A stretch of 20,000 nt of DNA, from IMG/VR virus record IMGVR_UViG_3300028888_000132, one strand, 5' to 3'. Each line of letters opens with the position of its first letter. Position 1 is the first letter of the stretch. The translations under genes and the position numbers were made by a program. The stretch is from an uncultured virus (IMG/VR IMGVR_UViG_3300028888_000132). Lineage: Duplodnaviria > Heunggongvirae > Uroviricota > Caudoviricetes. The notes below the pieces were generated by a model. It was not told where the DNA came from and made no database searches. It saw only the letters and a list, made by a program, of their open reading frames with translations. Of this stretch, positions 8,701 to 20,000 are shown piece after piece.

Positions 8701-10847
8701 CTCAGGGTGTAATAAGAAGTTCAAATGCTGACCTAATTCATTACAAAGGAGGTGTAAATTATACTATACTTGATTCAAGCAATTATTCAAGTTACGCATT
8801 ACCTATTAGTGGAGGTACACTATATAAAAACACAACTGACGCTCCTCTGTTTATAAAAACGCACAATACATCAGGAGCTTATATTGGTTATCAGTTAAAT
8901 GATGGCACTACTATGGGATTTATAGGTGTTCATGCTACCTATGGTGCAGCCTATGTTAAAAGTGGAACTATATATCCCATACTGCGTTCAGATAATTTTG
9001 GAGATTATGCTTACGCTTTGTATGGAGGTACTGACCTTGCTCCAACATCAACAAACACAATTAATCTTAATGAATTAAAAAGTACAGGAAGTTATTATGT
9101 CAGCACCAACACTCCAAGTCAGTATGTGACTAACAAGCCAGATGATACTCAGAATTATGCTTTCCGTGTATGGGTTTCTGCCCCAGGTGGTACAAGTGGC
9201 TATCGCAGACAGAGATTCCAATACCTTACACAAATGACAATTTATGAGAGGTTCTACAGTACAGATTCAAGCACATGGACTAATTGGTATAAGGTACAGG
9301 GCGATTTAGATGGCGAATATCTAAAACTAACTGGTGGAACAATTACTGGAAATCTAACAGTAAAAAATACATTATATACTGACGCTATTTGTGAGCCTAT
9401 TGCCTACAATGGCTTGCTTGTCTATCATCCTGCAAGTGGGTGGGGTGGCATATCATCAACACAATGGGGTGTAGGCTCTACTGATAGTCAAGGTGTGATA
9501 AGAAGCTCAGATGCTAACCTTATCCATTACAAAGGTGGAACAAATTACACAATATGTGATGGAAGCAACACTTATGTAAGCAGTGGAACTGGATATATCA
9601 ACGGTACAGCTATTACAAAGATTAGCGGTAATGCTGGTACTGCTACCACTTTAGCTACACCTCGCACTTTGTGGGGGCAGTCATTTAATGGCAGTGCAAA
9701 TGTCAGTGGAGATATGTCGAGTGTAGGCACTATTACATCAGCAAACTACACCTTAGCAACAAGTACAACTAATCCGTATTTGAAACTGAGCCATACATAT
9801 AACAGCACTAATTACGACTATTTTATTCAAGGTTATGAAGGTACTATGTGGCTGGGACCGAGTTCATATCCAGTAAAGATAGATAGCAGTGGGAATGTAG
9901 GTATAGGTACAATTCCATCCTACAAACTCCATGTGAATGGACAATTAGGAGTAACCACTGCAAGTCAAGGTACTATGAGGTTTGTTTCATCAGGTTCAAA
10001 AAACTTTATACAAAGTGGTAATGCTGCATTTGATGGTAATGCTGATATGACTATAGGTGGATATTCTGGTCATTTAGGCACTAATCTTAATCTCGAATTT
10101 AATGTAGTAAACGCAACCAGTGTCTTTAAAGTAAAAAGTTACCTGACACTTGGATATGGTGCGGAAGGTATATACTTGACAGGTTCAGGCATTAATTGGC
10201 ATAACACAAGTGATTCATGGACTAAATCTATAATGAGTTTTGCATCTAATGGTGTTGTTACACAGTTGGGAGGTCACTTTGTCCTTGCTGGTGCTCAGGC
10301 TGCAAGTTCAACGGGTAATACAACGCAGATTATTTTCACCGCTTCTGGTGCTCAGCAAGTAGCAATCAGTTCTAATTCAAGTGCATTGATTATCAACCCT
10401 ACATCATCAACCACTACCAAGCAAATTGTATTGGGCGTTGGTTCAGTTGCTTCTACATTTGGCAACTCAATCACTTGTAGTGGCGAAGTTACTGCATCAT
10501 CAGATGGCAGAAAGAAGAACATCATTTCCAACACCAAGTTTAATGTAAAGGACATTGCTTCTGCAAGGTCAGTCTTATTTGAATGGAATGATGGCAGGGA
10601 TGATGATATGGAGAAGAAGATACACGGTGGTAGTATTGCACAGGATTGGTTAGGCAAAGCAGATTCATTCCTTATGCAAGATGAGGATGGATTCTACTCA
10701 ATCAACTACGGTGCATTGGCATTGTGTTCAGCTATAACCATTGCAAGAGAGGTAGTGAAGCACGAAGATAGAATCACACTATTGGAAAAGGAAAATGCCA
10801 AACTGAAAGCAAGGGTGGAAGAACTTGAAGAAAGGAGGATAGCATGA
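2736..10847 (+). CDS. Giant tail protein: Tal/baseplate hub fused to central fibre/receptor-binding region and C-terminal peptidase S74 intramolecular chaperone
   Basis: 2703 aa. N-terminal Tal-like region with LVTRLRAYG motif; coiled coil (LQNRIKYLERQNQQ); fibre modules (GDMFYN...GWIEIQD...AAQDTADGKRRVFV..PTPPYDENDLWV); YLPLSGGNMTG and VGIGT..PSYKLHVNG repeats; knob-like segment at ~9060-9297; C-terminal SDGRKK...IAQD...SINYGAL plus coiled coil typical of S74 chaperones (from 10500). Confidence 0.9.
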   Translation: MGEWLIYGSNGVAKATVKKLEYNGEFMGETIVTCDVYSPSPISFSVGDYLSYRGENFVIDYDATRKKQSRVNTYGNGFVYEGMKFTSYVGELKKCDFLDFVLNDNLQHYSQLPTFDFYAETVEALANRIQANLNRMYTGSNAWTVSVVSGFEGKENVNVQISNIKCFDALKMAYEQFNAQYVIRGRHIYIGTAGASLETTFRYGIGNGLKTIERSVDENDSLVTRLRAYGNTTNLPSNYYANKGRGCYAPIFEVYALYDSGADIHFKPKFANNWFTEKSDANGINYWVSVSLDKKLWVEGVASPNVTVSSVDFSVVSVMAGGNNTTDMYNAFKSQLQSATQNTKLYFSKGVNYTNWKSDWKETDEYMPNMMSIDRLMIPSFPEESTDPYIDSANISSLGIREKSVYFDGSEDELPDIHPSMEGMTAAELRAAGYTIDLDQGDNGNLDEIAADATELDGSAITTNGAFVEVNEVPGFKVTLKDIGFDINSYLSGDTATLSMKSGMCGGRDFTIVKVTKLGNKYVLECQRVGDANYYFPYNPYNIKAGDKFVLTNIEMPNAYIDAASQRLLVAAQEYLAKHSVPQWVYSIKMDDVWMQRQRDDSESESESYYWNIKEGDIMSVQDSDLDINVSEVIDKLTIREGYSPIPEFEVVLRKEKPQGTIGVLQNRIKYLERQNQQQTNTIVRQQDYISLIIGDKLNTIQEQLDHVQVTYFGDYVPALNNEPASTWASSEYSEHDGDMFYNRTTGKGYEFTYKNGTWGWIEIQDEDIRQALEEAAAAQDTADGKRRVFVTPAGTLPTPPYDENDLWVNATYPSDSTSTDESQYKYYNDILKCVTPKAEGGTASINDWTLASKYTDDSSLNNFINGTYAQDLANVRTQTDAKAETWYQSSDPSSAWNTTALKDSHLGDIWLNTTPDANGNTHTYIYRKSGNTYGWQEVNGVPTAVFDMADGKASIYVSKPTKYKKNDLWVIESSISSSDLPTNCVKGDIVISSSNSNSYNKAHWTKKDRYTDDTYAHTFDYISAAIKGKTEVDGGLVLTNTLVLRDVANDGTQGNIMSGINGIIPKSGSTLDYTGIAAWYGGEMIDREKSAVANAAKSLFRFDGSGYVASGNLKWDANGNVTIQGYSINATTLQVGGSNVATESSISTFFANFFDIYNGSTQITYEQYVALQDKSNVSLKAKHGLWTEQFLSALGMNSQGEGGGGTGSVNSIKVATNTYLDPDADGIIDMSSYVSTAADRANWNTAYSQRHTHSNKSVLDGITSAKVTSWDNVAKIMEDDADAIINKWDEIIDFLDGIPDQSSLAEILAAKANTSTTVTNVAYSSKKLQKTINGTTTDIVTASTLFSDGLPTNTTKNYVFAAPSSAAGTPTFRALVYADLPSLYIGKTQVQSTSANQAMTGITSIDALAYFDMTNSRVGIGTSSPSYKLHVNGYTSTTRLYLSSSVYLEYDSTNSGIHVVGAGLYSDSYISALGSNSSGGGSSTFDEAQMWTALQSTSGTYGSEKIATTHIPDMASTYGYLKASSLNGYATQTWVNQQGFLTTHQTLYTLSIYGGTTKVLDFKPNANASIYIKAGGDISLTNDTTNKYITLSYTHPTNGANTTISAASGKVLSAITVNNLGHVTSVSSKTLVSADIPDLSGTYATAARATTLEGYFTNGVANTAAKLNTGTTTYTAWGQTYWSSGVPQSISGNMTSVGSITPSANGNALGTTSARFNIYGTAGNFSGNVSIGGTLGVTGATTLTGLLTANGGIVVPSSKTIKIGDCTISWDSTNSMLKFDTGIYSTGAVSALGSNSSGGGSGTFDEEAMWVALGTTITAKVIASSHIPNLSWAKITSGKPATLSGYGISDAYTKTQVDTALSGYLPLSGGNMTGNITFASNTGFYAKDTGGTSRLAMKLDGTDNLLIGYGTSIGGSNTYIDGNTVYIRYGTSHTTGITLASGGNVTIANRLLVNEITATNSEGLLVYKPSSGWGGISNTQWGAGSADSQGVIRSSNADLIHYKGGVNYTILDSSNYSSYALPISGGTLYKNTTDAPLFIKTHNTSGAYIGYQLNDGTTMGFIGVHATYGAAYVKSGTIYPILRSDNFGDYAYALYGGTDLAPTSTNTINLNELKSTGSYYVSTNTPSQYVTNKPDDTQNYAFRVWVSAPGGTSGYRRQRFQYLTQMTIYERFYSTDSSTWTNWYKVQGDLDGEYLKLTGGTITGNLTVKNTLYTDAICEPIAYNGLLVYHPASGWGGISSTQWGVGSTDSQGVIRSSDANLIHYKGGTNYTICDGSNTYVSSGTGYINGTAITKISGNAGTATTLATPRTLWGQSFNGSANVSGDMSSVGTITSANYTLATSTTNPYLKLSHTYNSTNYDYFIQGYEGTMWLGPSSYPVKIDSSGNVGIGTIPSYKLHVNGQLGVTTASQGTMRFVSSGSKNFIQSGNAAFDGNADMTIGGYSGHLGTNLNLEFNVVNATSVFKVKSYLTLGYGAEGIYLTGSGINWHNTSDSWTKSIMSFASNGVVTQLGGHFVLAGAQAASSTGNTTQIIFTASGAQQVAISSNSSALIINPTSSTTTKQIVLGVGSVASTFGNSITCSGEVTASSDGRKKNIISNTKFNVKDIASARSVLFEWNDGRDDDMEKKIHGGSIAQDWLGKADSFLMQDEDGFYSINYGALALCSAITIAREVVKHEDRITLLEKENAKLKARVEELEERRIA
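6288..8177 (+). repeat. Three copies of a G(L/I)(W/Y)xxxx(L/I/V)SALGxNSxG-Gly-rich linker module in the tail fibre
   Basis: Copies at 6288-6354 (GLWTEQFLSALGMNSQGEGGGG), 7125-7220 (GLYSDSYISALGSNSSGGGSSTFDEAQMWTAL) and 8082-8177 (GIYSTGAVSALGSNSSGGGSGTFDEEAMWVAL). Confidence 0.85.
8625..9569 (+). repeat. Duplicated 53-codon module in the distal fibre
   Basis: 8625-8783 and 9411-9569: GLLVYxPxSGWGGISxTQWGxGSxDSQGVIRSSxAxLIHYKGGxNYTIxDxSN, 43/53 aa identical by hand alignment, with many synonymous changes. Confidence 0.9.
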
Positions 10848-11227
10848 TACTGAAATCTGAAAGTGACAAGAGAATCATAGTACAAGGCAATATCAACGGA
10901 AAGAAGGCATATATGTTGGTAGATACAGGGGCTTCGTGTGGCTTATTGGATAAATCCGCTGTAAAGGAATATAAGTTGGCAGTAAACAAGCACAGAACTA
11001 TCAATCTTGTTGGTGCAGGAGGTAAGTTCAAAGCAAGTATGTGTGATACCCCATTTGTTATAGCTGGCAAGCAGATGTACCAATTTGCAATAGCCAATAT
11101 TAGTTCTGTTGTAGAATCTATAAAGAAGCAGACAGATATAGACATAGCAGGTCTTATCAGCTTACCACAAGCTAAGATGATAGGAATGAGTATAGATACA
11201 GACGACAACTATATAGAGATAGGATAA
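10844..11227 (+). CDS. Retropepsin-like (clan AA) aspartic protease
   Basis: 127 aa. IIVQGNINGKKAYMLVDTGAS catalytic motif, flap-like LVGAGG, degenerate IAGLIS second motif. ATGA overlap with the tail fibre stop; AAGGAGG upstream. Confidence 0.85.
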   Translation: MILKSESDKRIIVQGNINGKKAYMLVDTGASCGLLDKSAVKEYKLAVNKHRTINLVGAGGKFKASMCDTPFVIAGKQMYQFAIANISSVVESIKKQTDIDIAGLISLPQAKMIGMSIDTDDNYIEIG

Positions 11228-14837: not shown

Positions 14838-15362
14838 ATGTCGGATAACAACTTTGGCAACGGACTGATTTGGGTAGCTTTCCTTGACGAGGGGCTGCAA
14901 TGCGTAAGAGATTTGCGCTGGATGATTGTGCTATCAATCGTCCTTATCTTCACGGATTTCTGGTGGGGATGGAGTGAGAGCCGAATGAAGTACAATCGTG
15001 CTACCTCGGACAAAGAACGGGATAAATTGCGCTTCCACAAGAGCAAGGCTATCAGACGGTCTGCCAACAAGTTCGTTGACTACCTGACCTACCTCTTAGT
15101 AGGCTGTGTGCTTGGCATGGCTATCCTTGAACCATTGGGGATATGCTCCCATGTGACAAGCGCAGCCGCAGGTCTTGGTCTTGGCTGCGTGGCTGATGTG
15201 ATGAGCATTATAGGTCACTACTGCGCAGTCAAGGGCATAGACTTCGATGCTTGGAAGTTCTTAAAGAAGCTCGTAGTTGTCTTTGTCAAGAAGAAGGACG
15301 AGGATATGGGCGAGGCATTGGAAGAGACAATTAATACTGAAAGCCATGAAAATAATAATTGA
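14838..15362 (+). CDS. Holin (phage holin family 4-like)
   Basis: 174 aa with about three hydrophobic segments, D-x-W-x-G and SKAIRRSANKFVDY motifs, and a charged C-terminal tail. Directly upstream of the endolysin. Confidence 0.8.
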   Translation: MSDNNFGNGLIWVAFLDEGLQCVRDLRWMIVLSIVLIFTDFWWGWSESRMKYNRATSDKERDKLRFHKSKAIRRSANKFVDYLTYLLVGCVLGMAILEPLGICSHVTSAAAGLGLGCVADVMSIIGHYCAVKGIDFDAWKFLKKLVVVFVKKKDEDMGEALEETINTESHENNN

Positions 15363-15804
15363 CAGGGTTTATAAGTACCCGAAGTACACCGTTGGCGAGG
15401 TGTATGTCAACGGCAACTTTTATTGCTATTCGATGGAAGACACAGACAGAGGTCTTCATGTCGATATGCCTATGAGATATATGAGGGAGAGGAAGATATA
15501 TGGCGAGACAGCTATCCCTTGTGGAACGTATGAAGTAATAATAGACTACTCGCCCAAGTTCAAGAAGTATATGCCCCATGTTCTGTTTAGGAACGATGAG
15601 GACAAGCTGGTCGAAGTGCCTTGCTTTAGTGGCATTAGGATTCATCAAGGAAACACCGACAAGGACACTTTAGGTTGCCTTATGTTCGGGGATTGGCAAG
15701 GTGCTGCCACATTGGTAAAATCTAAACCTATAACGAGCAATCTCATTGATTCGATTCAGAGGGCAAGGAACAAGAAAGAGAAAGTAATCTTAGAAATACA
15801 CTAA
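15346..15804 (+). CDS. Endolysin, DUF5675-like putative L,D-peptidase
   Basis: Start at ATG 15346 (MKIIIDR..YTVGEVYVNG.FYCYSMED). KIYGETAIPCGTY and VPCFSGIRIHQGNTDKDTLGCL with conserved His/Cys; overlaps the holin end. Confidence 0.85.
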   Translation: MKIIIDRVYKYPKYTVGEVYVNGNFYCYSMEDTDRGLHVDMPMRYMRERKIYGETAIPCGTYEVIIDYSPKFKKYMPHVLFRNDEDKLVEVPCFSGIRIHQGNTDKDTLGCLMFGDWQGAATLVKSKPITSNLIDSIQRARNKKEKVILEIH

Positions 15805-17499: not shown

Positions 17500-18878
17500 G
17501 CAGAACAATCAATGATACTGGTACAGAAAGCTCCCACCCAGTCAGCTATGACAGTGGGTACTCTGCGTATAGTGTAAGTGGCTTGGATAATGCCCTGGCG
17601 GATTCCGATAGCACCACCTATGCCACCATTAACTTAACAAGAGGACAGAATGCTGAGACGATAATCTACTATAATTTCAACATTACTGGCATTCCAAGTG
17701 GTGCTACAATTAACTCAGTCAGCTGCTCTGCTAAGTGCTATATCAGCTCCACAAATTCAAGCCGTATTGCCACAAGGCAGATAAGATTGTATTCAGGCTC
17801 TACTGCTATGGGTTCTGCACACACAGTTTCCAACAGCACTACGGCTTTCAGTATGACTGCTGGAACATGGACTGCTGCACAGTTTGCTAATGCCAAGGTA
17901 AGGTTATATGCCAAGCGTGGTACAAGCAATACTACCACCAACTATTACTTCAGGTTCTATGGAGCAACATTGACGGTTTCCTATACCTATCAAACAGTAG
18001 TCTATGAGGTAACTGCAAGTAGTAATGTCAGCGGAGTTACCATAGAGCCAGCCTCTCAAGAACAGGCACAAGGTGGTAATGCAACGGTAACACTTAACAC
18101 AAATTCCAATATTAAATTGTTGGATAACAATACGGATGTTACATCGTCAATAGAATATGGCAGCCAAAATCCTACCTATTCGGTGGAAACAGTATCAGGT
18201 GCAGAGTATGGGTTCAACTTGTCTAATGGGTGGTATGTGTCAGCTAACAAGGGAATCAATTCGTCTGCTGCTTTGTGTAGGGTTACTTTTGACTTGCCTA
18301 TTAGTTGTGATATTACCTTTACATACATTAACTATGCAGAGGCTACCTATGACTTTGGCGTTTTCTCTAAAATTGATACCGCTTTATCTACTACTGCATG
18401 GGACTCAACAAGTAGTGGCGGTGATACTACTACTGATGCAGGGAAAGAGCAAAGGCGACTCAATACATCATCTTATAACTCATCAAGTCAGCAAACATTG
18501 ACATATAGTAATGTATCATCTGGAAGTCATTACATAGATGTAAAGTTCAGCAAAGACCAAGCTACTGCCGAGAATAATGATACATTGCAATGGAAGGTTT
18601 CTATAACTCCGAGGGGTACATTGCCTACTGTATATACATATACAATTACAAATATATCAGCAGACCATGTGCTTGTTGTTAATCCAGCTTCTGCACCAAG
18701 TGATAAGATATTCCGCAAGGTAAATGGCACATGGGTACAGGCTTCTAAGGAATATGTGAAAGTGAGCGGTACATGGAGAGAGGTCAGCAAGGTTTACAAG
18801 AAAGTCAATGGCTCTTGGGTGGAACAAGATGATATTAGTGCAATGTTTGACCCTAATGCAATTTATATAGGAGGTTAA
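17496..18878 (+). CDS. Putative fibre-tip adhesin / receptor-binding protein
   Basis: 460 aa, Ser/Thr/Tyr-rich beta protein. YTYTITNISADHVLVV Ig-like strand and three C-terminal KV(N/S)GxW repeats; ATGA-coupled to the 74-aa gene. Confidence 0.7.
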   Translation: MSRTINDTGTESSHPVSYDSGYSAYSVSGLDNALADSDSTTYATINLTRGQNAETIIYYNFNITGIPSGATINSVSCSAKCYISSTNSSRIATRQIRLYSGSTAMGSAHTVSNSTTAFSMTAGTWTAAQFANAKVRLYAKRGTSNTTTNYYFRFYGATLTVSYTYQTVVYEVTASSNVSGVTIEPASQEQAQGGNATVTLNTNSNIKLLDNNTDVTSSIEYGSQNPTYSVETVSGAEYGFNLSNGWYVSANKGINSSAALCRVTFDLPISCDITFTYINYAEATYDFGVFSKIDTALSTTAWDSTSSGGDTTTDAGKEQRRLNTSSYNSSSQQTLTYSNVSSGSHYIDVKFSKDQATAENNDTLQWKVSITPRGTLPTVYTYTITNISADHVLVVNPASAPSDKIFRKVNGTWVQASKEYVKVSGTWREVSKVYKKVNGSWVEQDDISAMFDPNAIYIGG

Positions 18879-18879
18879 T

Positions 18880-19404
18880 ATGGAAATCGAGGTTAAAGAC
18901 AAGAGGGTAGGATGCCTAACATTGGCGATGTGGTTCTTTTTGGTGTTCTGCACTGGGCTGATTCTTATCTGTCTTGGAAGCTGTAGGAGTGTCAAGTATG
19001 TCACTTATGAGACAATCAAGCACGATTCAATTTTCATCAGCAAGAAGGACACATTGAAAGTCACGCATACTATCAAGGAGAAGGAATATGTAGAGGTTAA
19101 GGACAGTGCAAGCACCACATTGGACGAGCAAGGCAATATCTTAAAACAAGAGATTTGGCACAACAAGACGATTATCCGTCAGATGTCCGATTCCCTTGAT
19201 TATTACAGAGCAATGTATGATTCACTGCTCTCGGTGAAACAGAAAACCGAATATGTGCCTTATCCTGCGGAGAGAGAGTTATCCACTTGGGAGAAAAGGT
19301 ATATCTCTCTCGGAAAGGTGTCGCTGGGCTTGTATATCGGGCTTGTGGCGGCTTTAATTGCTTGGTTGGTATATTATATCAAGCGGAAGAAGAAAATGCC
19401 TTAG
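18880..19404 (+). CDS. Unimolecular spanin (u-spanin)-like lipoprotein
   Basis: 174 aa. Hydrophobic signal ending in lipobox LGSC, beta-rich periplasmic segment, C-terminal TM helix (LGLYIGLVAALIAWLVYYI) followed by KRKKK. Last gene of the late unit. Confidence 0.75.
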   Translation: MEIEVKDKRVGCLTLAMWFFLVFCTGLILICLGSCRSVKYVTYETIKHDSIFISKKDTLKVTHTIKEKEYVEVKDSASTTLDEQGNILKQEIWHNKTIIRQMSDSLDYYRAMYDSLLSVKQKTEYVPYPAERELSTWEKRYISLGKVSLGLYIGLVAALIAWLVYYIKRKKKMP

Positions 19405-19419
19405 AATTGGCTTTTAAAG

Positions 19420-19476
19420 TTTTTCATGATATAGTTATTTTATTAGAGCAGTCGGTCTGCGAAGATAGGCTGCTTT
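19420..19476 (+). ncRNA. Candidate 3'-derived sRNA unit 1 (UUUUCAU seed + GCGA-loop hairpin)
   Basis: TTTTTCAT at 19420-19427, U-rich linker, hairpin AGAGCAGTC-G-GTCT GCGA AGAT-A-GGCTGCTTT (19445-19476). The ncRNA status is inference. Confidence 0.45.
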
Positions 19477-19484
19477 GCAAATAG

Positions 19485-19537
19485 TTTTTTCATAAGTTAT
19501 GTTTTTACTGCTGGGCTGTGAAGTTCGGCAGTTTTTT
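19485..19537 (+). terminator. Late-operon intrinsic terminator / candidate sRNA unit 2
   Basis: TTTTTTCAT at 19485-19493, then ACTGCTGGGC-T GTGA A-GTTCGGCAGT (19507-19532) followed by TTTTT. Confidence 0.7.
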
Positions 19538-19541
19538 ATAC

Positions 19542-19607
19542 AAAAAAAGCCCACCCTATCCTCACGGACAAGATGGGCTGACAAAACTTAATACTAATTT
19601 ATGAAAA
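19542..19607 (-). terminator. Minus-strand intrinsic terminator / candidate sRNA unit 3
   Basis: Minus strand reads TTTTCAT-AAATTAGTATTAAGTTTTGTC-AGCCCATCTTGTCC GTGA GGATAGGGTGGGC-TTTTTTT. Confidence 0.7.
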
Positions 19608-19673
19608 CAAAACTACAATGAGAATTTTTTCTCTATGATGCTCCAATCTAAAACAATATCTTCGTTCATACAT

Positions 19674-20000
19674 TTATTCTTCTTTAAAGTTCAACTTTCC
19701 TTGTAAATATTTGTCGGCATACCAATGGGAATATGACTTGCCGCTTATCCACCAATCAAAGATGTTCTCAGCTATCTCGTCTTCTGTCTGTTCGTTTTGC
19801 CCCCCCCTAATGCCGTTTAGAGAGGGGCTTGGAGAAAACCCCGTTCCATATACCGATATTTGCTTTCCTTTCCCAATGTCCTCGAAGTTCTGTATTGCGA
19901 GCTTCCCGATTCCGATAGTCCATCCGTTCCTCCATTTGGATATTTGTGCAATATTCTGTTGCTGATGATTGACTATCCCCGCCCCCCCCCTTCCCCATTC
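19674..20000 (-). CDS. 3' end of a convergent gene, probably phage PAPS-reductase-family protein (partial)
   Basis: Frame open from 20000 to TAA at 19676-19674: ...GFSPSPSLNGIRGGQNEQTEDEIAENIFDWWISGKSYSHWYADKYLQGKLNFKEE*. I recall the ENIFDWWISGKSY tail from Bacteroidota phage PAPS-reductase-like proteins; the catalytic motif is not in the window. Absent from the ORF track. Confidence 0.55.
   Translation of the reverse strand, partial: EWGRGGAGIVNHQQQNIAQISKWRNGWTIGIGKLAIQNFEDIGKGKQISVYGTGFSPSPSLNGIRGGQNEQTEDEIAENIFDWWISGKSYSHWYADKYLQGKLNFKEE

Follow-up and report, generated by a model that had tools for sequence, protein, structure and literature searches.

What do three RNA units of shared design do at the point where two convergent phage operons meet? 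In the stretch of uncultured viral DNA analyzed here (20,000 nucleotides, hereafter the window), each unit carries a TTTTCAT box, a linker and a hairpin capped by a GYGA tetraloop. An initial interpretation made from the sequence alone (the sequence-only reading) regarded them as small RNAs resembling the FopS family of Bacteroides thetaiotaomicron. Post-transcriptional control in Bacteroidota is poorly charted, and FopS and GibS are among the few RNAs of this phylum with a known mechanism. To our knowledge, Bacteroidota do not use Shine-Dalgarno sequences. Here we examine the units as transcript ends, as members of a hairpin family and as candidate regulators, and we suggest that they are terminator modules that probably double as FopS/GibS-like RNAs, a reading to which we assign a probability of about 0.5.

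The convergent gap and its three units

The content of the window was phage-like and included a tape-measure protein fragment, a 2703-aa tail-type protein, BACON-domain proteins and a DUF5675 protein. The two convergent operons were separated by an intergenic gap of 269 nt (19405-19673) with a GC content of 33%. The last rightward gene encodes a 174-aa membrane-anchored protein, for which searches of Pfam and PHROG revealed no family and which had 64 relatives in metagenome assemblies. The right flank of the gap was formed by a leftward ORF that continues beyond the window edge. In locus L004, which was identical to the window over the stretches read and continues past its right edge, this ORF was completed to a 380-aa protein with a PAPS-reductase domain. 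The related contigs originated from ruminant gut metagenomes. A comparison of positions 18000-20000 with the cultured phages of GenBank gave zero matches, and positions 19440-19582 matched GenBank phages only at E values of ~5, in all cases within coding DNA. Exact searches of viral contigs for the third hairpin (H3) and for the unit 3 leader gave no matches, and neither did a genome collection searched with the protein alignment and with the unit 3 leader.

All three units were located between 19420 and 19607 with the shared design that had been described for them (Table 1), and the additional minus-strand TTCTCAT was also present as claimed. The linkers between box and hairpin measured 16, 13 and 21 nt in units 1, 2 and 3, respectively. 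Hairpins H1, H2 and H3 showed folding energies of -17.4, -15.8 and -24.7 kcal/mol, with z-scores of -2.7, -4.5 and -5.8 relative to shuffled sequences, and folds of the single units revealed unpaired leaders and 3'-terminal hairpins. A terminator scan placed H3 and H2 among the top three sites of the window by strength, and both displayed the features of an intrinsic terminator, with a GC-containing stem-loop and, directly behind it, a U-run where the transcription unit ends. At H1, the scan returned only an alternative weak stem, and the H1 stem was followed by CTTTGC and no T-run, which does not correspond to an intrinsic terminator. H1 was an additional hairpin that preceded H2 at the end of the rightward operon.

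Table 1. Positions of the features discussed in the text, numbered from the first letter of the window.
Feature	Position	Strand	Basis
TAG stop of the final rightward gene (18880-19404)	19402..19404	+	ORF list
Unit 1 TTTTCAT box; GTTTTTCAT with the preceding G	19421..19427	+	Motif search
Hairpin H1, loop GCGA at 19459-19462, conserved apex, without T-run	19444..19477	+	Fold
Unit 2 TTTTCAT box (TTTTTTCATAA)	19487..19493	+	Motif search
Hairpin H2 (19507-19532, loop GTGA) with T-run; very probable intrinsic terminator of the rightward operon	19507..19538	+	Fold, terminator scan
Hairpin H3 (19579-19548, loop GTGA) with T-run; very probable intrinsic terminator of the leftward operon	19541..19579	-	Fold, terminator scan
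Unit 3 leader, 33 nt, unpaired in the fold; TTTTCAT at 19607-19601, AGTATTA at 19595-19589; candidate GibS/FopS-like seed	19580..19612	-	
TAGTTTTG, full TAnnTTTG match; its TAG is the stop codon of the small ORF	19608..19615	-	Sequence reading
Small ORF, 18 codons (MNEDIVLDWSIIEKKFSL), containing TTCTCAT at 19624-19618	19613..19669	-	Sequence reading, relatives
Start region of the DUF5675 gene (ATG at 15346), where the unit 3 leader is predicted to pair	15326..15355	+	Duplex prediction

The reverse complement of the box reads ATGAAAA, and we considered antisense genes opening at this sequence. The short antisense ORFs noted in the sequence-only reading were found, with 8, 16 and 6 codons in the window. 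Across units these ORFs comprised only 3-32 codons, which indicates that the TTTTCAT box is not the back of real gene starts, and the idea was dropped. A lone long antisense ORF of 68 codons was found in L006, where it runs antisense through the neighbouring gene. Among relatives, most differences in the small ORF that contains TTCTCAT fell on third positions of codons; in L007 the ATG of this ORF overlaps the upstream gene's stop codon, and in the gene adjoining this ORF the window differs from L006 and L007.

The full intergenic stretch was present in two relatives, L006 (72% protein identity) and L007 (80%), and L005 and L008 contained only its start. From H2 through H3 to 19612, the DNA of L006 and L007 was 96-100% identical to that of the window. 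In particular, the unit 3 leader was identical at 33 of 33 bases in both relatives and H3 at 31-32 of 32, compared with 59-76% identity in the 3' half of the neighbouring gene and 59-89% in the flanking coding DNA. The box of unit 1 was retained in L006 and L007 and read TTTTCCAT in L005 and L008. The box of unit 2 was present in L007 and at the end of L008; L006 had lost this box together with its linker but retained H2. Compensatory changes were found in H1 of L006. No RNA run was present among 24 sequencing runs. Contigs from four sequencing runs spanned the stretch with few differences, and one of them carried 546 extra letters inserted exactly between the two terminator tails, which indicates that the two terminators belong to separate gene blocks.

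A hairpin family with a conserved apex

The hairpins were not confined to this locus. A 21-mer of H2 recurred in four unrelated viral contigs, always as a hairpin followed by a T-run, and in one of these contigs the hairpin stood among sequences that by appearance resembled tRNA 3' ends. A search with the H1 apex, written as 18 bases of which two were degenerate, yielded 34 sites in 32 viral loci, about 11 of which represent a single phage lineage. The sites in L016 and L035 lie in GC-rich, coding-like sequence, were judged to be chance occurrences and were left out of the alignment. The hairpin of L020 was nearly identical to H1, and the apex of H3 corresponds to that of H1 with one U-A pair replaced by C-G. 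At nearly all other apex loci, the bases beyond the pattern differed yet remained complementary, and T-runs were present after most of the hairpins.

We then aligned 32 hairpins without gaps, nine rows of which were contributed by the window and its two relatives. In this alignment, 89.4% of the cells were paired, compared with 34-42% when the partners were slid, and 77 cells showed double changes, compared with 22 in shuffles; as the apex columns were set by the search patterns, only the outer pairs carry independent weight. One G.U pair was unchanged in all 32 hairpins, which points to selection on the RNA of that strand. A covariance model built from the alignment (R1) found only H1-H3 in the window, with scores of 45.7-49.8 bits for hairpins that had belonged to its training set. 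Applied to five phage records, R1 revealed one to four copies in each, eight of which were new to the model. No Rfam family corresponded to the conserved-apex hairpin. Narrow look-ups of the literature gave no specific prior description of it, which falls short of establishing that the family is unpublished.

In other contigs, the neighbours of the hairpin included tRNAs, a tmRNA, a Hatchet ribozyme and a DUF2693-FD RNA, as well as sub-cut-off matches of twister-P1-like and RAGATH-1-like type. Hairpins without a T-run stood a few bases before a tRNA or immediately upstream of the Hatchet ribozyme. Whether the hairpin is followed by a T-run, a tRNA or a ribozyme, each of these contexts would mark an RNA 3' end. 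Two other readings, a target-site hairpin of a retroelement and an antitermination (nut-like) site of a phage, were dropped because the hairpins have U-runs at operon ends and also precede tRNAs.

H2 and H3 resemble intrinsic terminators with stable GNRA-type tetraloops in that they combine a GC-containing stem, a tetraloop and a U-run at convergent operon ends. Unlike ordinary intrinsic terminators, the family has an apex sequence that is conserved across unrelated phages above a covarying lower stem, and a specific upstream box is coupled to its hairpin. Additionally, H1 and several relatives do not have a U-run, and some members precede tRNAs or a ribozyme. The hairpins form a family that is under selection at the RNA level and is positioned at transcript ends. 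We consider it very probable that the two operons have H2 and H3 as their intrinsic terminators, and that H1, H2 and H3 all belong to this family of phage RNA 3'-end hairpins.

The TTTTCAT box and its likeness to FopS and GibS

TTTTCAT occurred eight times in the 20-kb window, compared with 5.55 expected, and three of the eight copies lay within the 269-nt gap. Shuffles of the gap contained 0.17 copies of the word on average, and three copies had a probability of ~0.001 for that word; some 7-mer was present three times in 18.7% of the shuffles, and the window alone therefore cannot establish a design beyond chance. The coupling was much clearer in a simple scan of four whole phage contigs (244 kb, 243 terminator-like hairpins). 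Here, 6 of 13 terminators with a GYGA loop had TTTTCAT in the 60 nt upstream, compared with 2 of 229 other terminator-like hairpins (Fisher p = 1.7e-7); the contigs had been picked for holding a TTTTCAT unit, and two of the six positives are these index units. Among hairpins with an upstream GC content of at most 35%, the corresponding values were 6/12 and 1/36 (p = 4.6e-4). Hairpins with other tetraloops in the four contigs were preceded by TTTTCAT in 1 of 52 cases.

Counted by lineage, exact TTTTCAT was present on the sense strand within 55 nt upstream of the hairpin in 4 of 21 lineages outside the window family, and TTCAT in 6 of 21, against a background of 4.1% of AT-rich 55-nt windows from the same loci; the 21 lineages take in the two chance sites (L016 and L035) and four H2-type sites. 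Of the eight new members found by R1, four carried exact TTTTCAT and three more carried GTTTCAT, TTCAT or GTCAT. The exact box was absent from the other 17 of 21 lineages and from all four of the other contigs with the H2 hairpin. The proposed conservation of TTTTCAT upstream of homologous hairpins was thus upheld as an enrichment, but the box is not obligatory, as also seen in L006 and in L005 and L008. TTTTCAT is specifically coupled to the GYGA hairpin family, though not in every copy.

To judge the relation of the units to known regulators, we compared them with GibS and FopS through visual inspection and motif search. GibS has a conserved 5' portion that is unstructured and pairs across the start codons of its targets, according to PMC7366714. 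In supplementary files 4 and 3 of PMC11697453, the GibS and FopS-10 T7 primers, as well as the "70% consensus" of FopS (35 nt), which served for target prediction, open with a U-rich CAU box that is identical to TTTTCAT and is followed by AGUAUUAG. The box of the units corresponds to the opening dozen bases of GibS and FopS-10. The Rfam consensus of GibS also carries a box of this type. The bases common to the GibS/FopS start were GTTTTTCAT in unit 1, TTTTTCATA in unit 2 and TTTTCATA in unit 3, and the AGTATTA of GibS and FopS was also present in unit 3, after a 4-base insertion. The units had 7-10 bases in common with the 35-nt FopS consensus (plus the seven of AGTATTA in unit 3), and the rest was unmatched. 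The composite motif TTTTCAT-N(0-8)-AGTATTA occurred twice in the window, compared with 0.01 expected.

The curated models gave a different picture. The Rfam models of FopS (RF04319, BTncRNA_FopS; cut-off 56 bits) and GibS (RF04182; cut-off 115 bits, 142 positions) both detected B. thetaiotaomicron, FopS above its cut-off. Neither model matched positions 19000-20000 or 19400-19680 of the window at E values up to 10, and the comparison with FopS and Rfam that had been suggested for the units was negative in this respect. In the five phage records, the FopS model reached at most 19.4 bits. The GibS model was the top weak Rfam match on the units of L045, with 29.6 bits and UUUUCAUAGU aligned to model positions 4-13. 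No Rfam family came near its cut-off on the units, the values being 19 bits for rteR and 17.7 bits for Prevotella-2, each against a cut-off of 72.

In design, the units and FopS (RF04319; PMC11697453) share a single-stranded 5' stretch directly before an intrinsic, Rho-independent terminator hairpin, with U-runs at H2 and H3 only among the units. They also share the leading U-rich CAU box, the AGUAUUA that follows it in unit 3, and their multicopy nature. In contrast, the terminator hairpin of the window units comes from another, phage-typical family, and the FopS consensus is only partly common to them. The same source lists nine intergenic FopS RNAs, four antisense ones and one derived from a 3' UTR, so the statement in the sequence-only reading that FopS RNAs are largely 3'-derived was wrong; the source also reports a FopS sequence in one phage. 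GibS (RF04182; PMC7366714) likewise has a box-headed, unstructured 5' end, but its 142 nt include hairpins in the middle and a second seed, whereas the window units would measure 55-75 nt.

Judged on sequence and predicted fold, the units resemble FopS and GibS in design and in the first seed bases and are not members of either family by the curated models. The FopS-like reading found partial support, in the architecture and the first seed bases, and none for family membership. Small RNAs derived from 3' UTRs share the terminator of their parent mRNA. The units are similar to this general class in their position at operon 3' ends, with the putative seed just upstream of the terminator of the mRNA. 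On balance, we regard the coupled UUUUCAU leader as more likely functional than not, given the specificity of its coupling and the presence of the same box at the head of validated regulators in Bacteroides.

Predicted action of the leaders and competing explanations

The best predicted duplex of the unit 3 leader on the whole plus strand fell at the start of the DUF5675 gene (-18.6 kcal/mol), which ranked first among 3870 windows. The product of this gene matched Pfam DUF5675 with E = 5.7e-22, and a search for a relative with a solved structure found none; its likely start, ATG 15346, is in frame with the listed TTG at 15277. The predicted duplex consists of three blocks from about -20 to +10 around the start, and the second match of the composite motif in the window is the antisense of this same gene start. 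The next independent site of unit 3 was only 0.6 kcal/mol weaker (-18.0 kcal/mol), and 53 of 1000 dinucleotide-shuffled leaders matched unit 3 against the 16 start regions of the window, which is borderline. A form of unit 3 starting at CAU would lose the strongest pairing block (-11.9 compared with -18.6 kcal/mol). Units 1 and 2 performed no better than shuffled leaders against the start regions of the phage itself. The complementarity of unit 2 to the leader of the BACON gene, which the sequence-only reading had pointed out, amounted to -10.4 kcal/mol, again no better than shuffled leaders.

We also compared eight leaders from five genomes with their own predicted start regions, using 100 shuffles each and crude gene calls, and obtained p values of 0.17, 0.80, 0.01, 0.74, 0.35, 0.21, 0.66 and 0.04. 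The pairing was non-significant for six of the eight leaders and weak overall. In the best case, L029/G004, the leader outperformed 99 of 100 shuffles on a start region of its own phage, and the layout was that of unit 3, with an upstream block plus AUGAAAA. The prediction that targets lie at start codons was thus supported by unit 3 (borderline) and by L029/G004, but not by the majority of leaders. A general link between the units and DUF5675 genes was dropped, as the gene was present in only one of the five records; in that record, the unit lies in the 3' UTR of the gene and, read from the sequence, has little complementarity to its start.

We propose that each of the three units is a copy of a composite RNA 3'-end module, which phages of Bacteroidota-type hosts would use repeatedly. 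Its hairpin would have the apex C-R-G-U-C-U / GYGA loop / A-G-A-U-A-G-G, one G.U pair that never varies and a lower stem free to covary. A U-run would usually come next, and roughly a third to half of the copies would have a single-stranded UUUUCAU leader 8-40 nt upstream. H2 would close the rightward structural operon and H3 the leftward operon, and with both operons ended in this way the 3' end of the transcripts would consist of a UUUUCAU leader and a stable hairpin, the design seen in GibS and FopS. In those RNAs, the U-rich CAU box comes first and pairs across start codons of the AUGAAAA type. The phage 3' ends, unit 3 above all, may serve as regulators of the FopS/GibS kind, whether they stay on the mRNA or are released from it as small RNAs derived from the 3' UTR. 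They would block start regions, engage RbpB, the RRM protein of the host, or do both. From these features we infer a discrete small RNA, base-pairing of its leader with start regions, and the targets of this pairing. The leader may operate by start-codon pairing, by binding of an RbpB-type protein, or by both. Silencing of host surface receptors, superinfection exclusion and sponging of host RNA-binding proteins, as put forward in the sequence-only reading, would be hypothetical roles.

The units could instead be pure RNA boundary or terminator hairpins that end or protect transcripts, with UUUUCAU serving a purpose other than start-codon pairing, for instance as the target of a protein that binds U-rich RNA, as a point of ribonuclease processing or as a help in termination. 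Such a role fits the canonical T-runs of H2 and H3 exactly at the operon convergence, the 546 letters between the tails in one relative, where the terminators act as ends of separate blocks, and the family copies that precede tRNAs and a ribozyme. It is also consistent with the absence of TTTTCAT from most family members and with the non-significant start-region pairing of six of the eight leaders. We nevertheless consider it rather unlikely, since it leaves unexplained both the identity of the box with the start of the validated GibS/FopS seed and the complete identity of the 33-nt unit 3 leader, beyond the hairpin, in diverged relatives, and since TTTTCAT accompanies GYGA hairpins far more often than expected by chance.

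A further possibility is that the units are autonomous tiny RNA genes with their own Bacteroidota-type promoters, in which TTTTCAT lies over the transcription start and RNAs of 45-65 nt begin near CAU. The sequence TAnnTTTG, which we take to be the -7 promoter box of Bacteroidota, can putatively be assigned to 19608-19615 on the minus strand. A full TAnnTTTG was found just upstream of the box in unit 3 (TAGTTTTG), in L018 and in two units of L045 (TAAATTTG), and in L025 (TACCTTTG) it stands 4 nt before GTGTGTTTTCAT. Canonical promoters of the TAnnTTTG type, moreover, drive the FopS genes, according to PMC11697453. Several features argue against this arrangement and make it improbable: no full TAnnTTTG was present at units 1 and 2, the box of unit 3 matched at only 7 of 8 positions in L006 and L007 owing to an insertion, the spacing from the recurrent TAG to CAT varied from 4 to 9 bases, and the promoter consensus was assumed rather than computed. 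In unit 3, the putative promoter box (19615-19608) is so close that the transcription start would fall inside or past the TTTTCAT box, and an RNA starting at CAU would forfeit the strongest pairing block, as described above. Finally, chance, whereby AT-rich intergenic DNA merely holds three TTTTCAT words near three ordinary hairpins, could draw on the frequency of tripled 7-mers in gap shuffles and on the unenriched count across the window, but it is disfavoured and very improbable, given that the coupling recurs in unrelated contigs at matched composition (6/12 compared with 1/36) and that all three boxes lie on the sense strand of their hairpin, 13-21 nt away.

The reading of the units as terminator modules that double as regulators can be extended to a bolder and doubtful form, in which the GYGA hairpin and the UUUUCAU leader together constitute a portable silencing cassette. 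The fixed-apex hairpin would then be a recognition handle for a host or phage protein, and Bacteroidota phages would append the cassette to operon ends, tRNA spacers and ribozyme-flanked units. Unit 3, freed from the 3' UTR of the leftward operon, would silence translation of the DUF5675 gene of the phage itself (about -20 to +10 of the AUG), and units 1 and 2 would target AUGAAAA-type starts of the host. If this were true, FopS and GibS of Bacteroides would be the chromosomal cousins of a far larger, phage-borne class.

Even on a sober reading, a hairpin family with a fixed apex and its coupling to one 7-mer demand an explanation. Should the phages that infect rumen and gut Bacteroidota regularly finish their transcripts with FopS/GibS-like anti-start-codon leaders on a dedicated hairpin, this would account for the spread of such RNAs, for which a role of phages is suggested in PMC11697453, and it would provide a simple sequence signature for finding FopS/GibS-like RNAs in metagenomes. 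The modules would then represent a shared means by which phages adjust translation, be it that of the host or their own.

Gene order and junctions around the convergent terminators

Upon comparison of the window with its diverged relatives L006 and L007, we found the first 12-15 codons of a small open reading frame (ORF) to be conserved in both, with changes falling mostly at third positions. In L007, the ATG of this ORF overlaps the stop codon of the upstream gene, which is a different gene from that in the window. The ORF may encode a genuine small protein, or it may be the remnant of a lost gene.

Across the right edge of the window and its continuation in L004, a gene with a PAPS-reductase domain is flanked by a gene encoding 188 residues and by the small ORF. 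Because the 188-aa gene directly adjoins the small ORF in L007, the PAPS-reductase gene looks like an accessory gene acquired by insertion. Separately, two poly-C tracts, each 8-9 nt long (poly-G on the coding strand; window 19800-19810 and 19980-19993), were observed in this gene, where they encode glycine stretches; replication slippage is possible at homopolymer tracts of such length.

A window-related contig from one metagenome run was longer by 546 letters, all of them placed precisely between the T-tail of terminator hairpin H2 and that of H3 (window 19537/19540), which suggests that this site is an insertion hot spot.

Features described in this part, by locus
Feature	Location	Strand	Remarks
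Protein of 127 aa with an aspartyl protease domain (retroviral type)	window 10844-11227	+	Asp_protease_2, E = 8.8e-9
DUF5675 gene	window 15277-15804	+	
18-codon ORF (MNEDIVLDWSIIEKKFSL)	window 19613-19669	-	directly 3' of leftward gene
PAPS-reductase-domain gene, 380 aa	window 19674-20000, continuing L004 2838-3980	-	Pfam E = 3.5e-16
Conserved-apex hairpin and Hatchet ribozyme (94 bits)	L015 1356-1528	-	hairpin ~20 nt upstream of ribozyme
Three tandem units, ~130 nt apart	L045 1483-1789	-	end of 93-kb viral contig
L025 unit	G003 21890-21983	-	

Other genes of the window

For the DUF5675 gene, ATG 15346 is a more probable start codon than the TTG (15277) chosen by the ORF finder; in this shorter version of the protein, the match to the Pfam family runs from residue 5 onward. 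The aspartyl-protease-domain gene lies directly 3' of the 2703-aa tail-type gene.

Settings of the hairpin family in other viral loci

Besides its position next to a ribozyme, the conserved-apex hairpin was found a few bases ahead of tRNAs in phage tRNA arrays (L024, L026, L039 and L044), and tmRNA genes are also near it in L026 and L039.

Each tandem unit of L045 contains, in order, the family hairpin with a T-run, an inverted repeat (ATTGATTTTT ... AAAATCAAT) and TAAATTTG, the last being a full match to the Bacteroidota -7 box (TAnnTTTG); one of the three units contains two TTTTCAT boxes. Taken together, the units resemble a terminator-operator-promoter cassette present in several copies.

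In L025, TACCTTTG, likewise a full match to the -7 box, stands 4 nt ahead of GTGTGTTTTCATAG. The family hairpin there is without a T-run, and just downstream we found a weak match to the FopS model RF04319 (15.5 bits, model positions 19-71). L025 may represent a longer FopS-like RNA gene that encloses the family hairpin.
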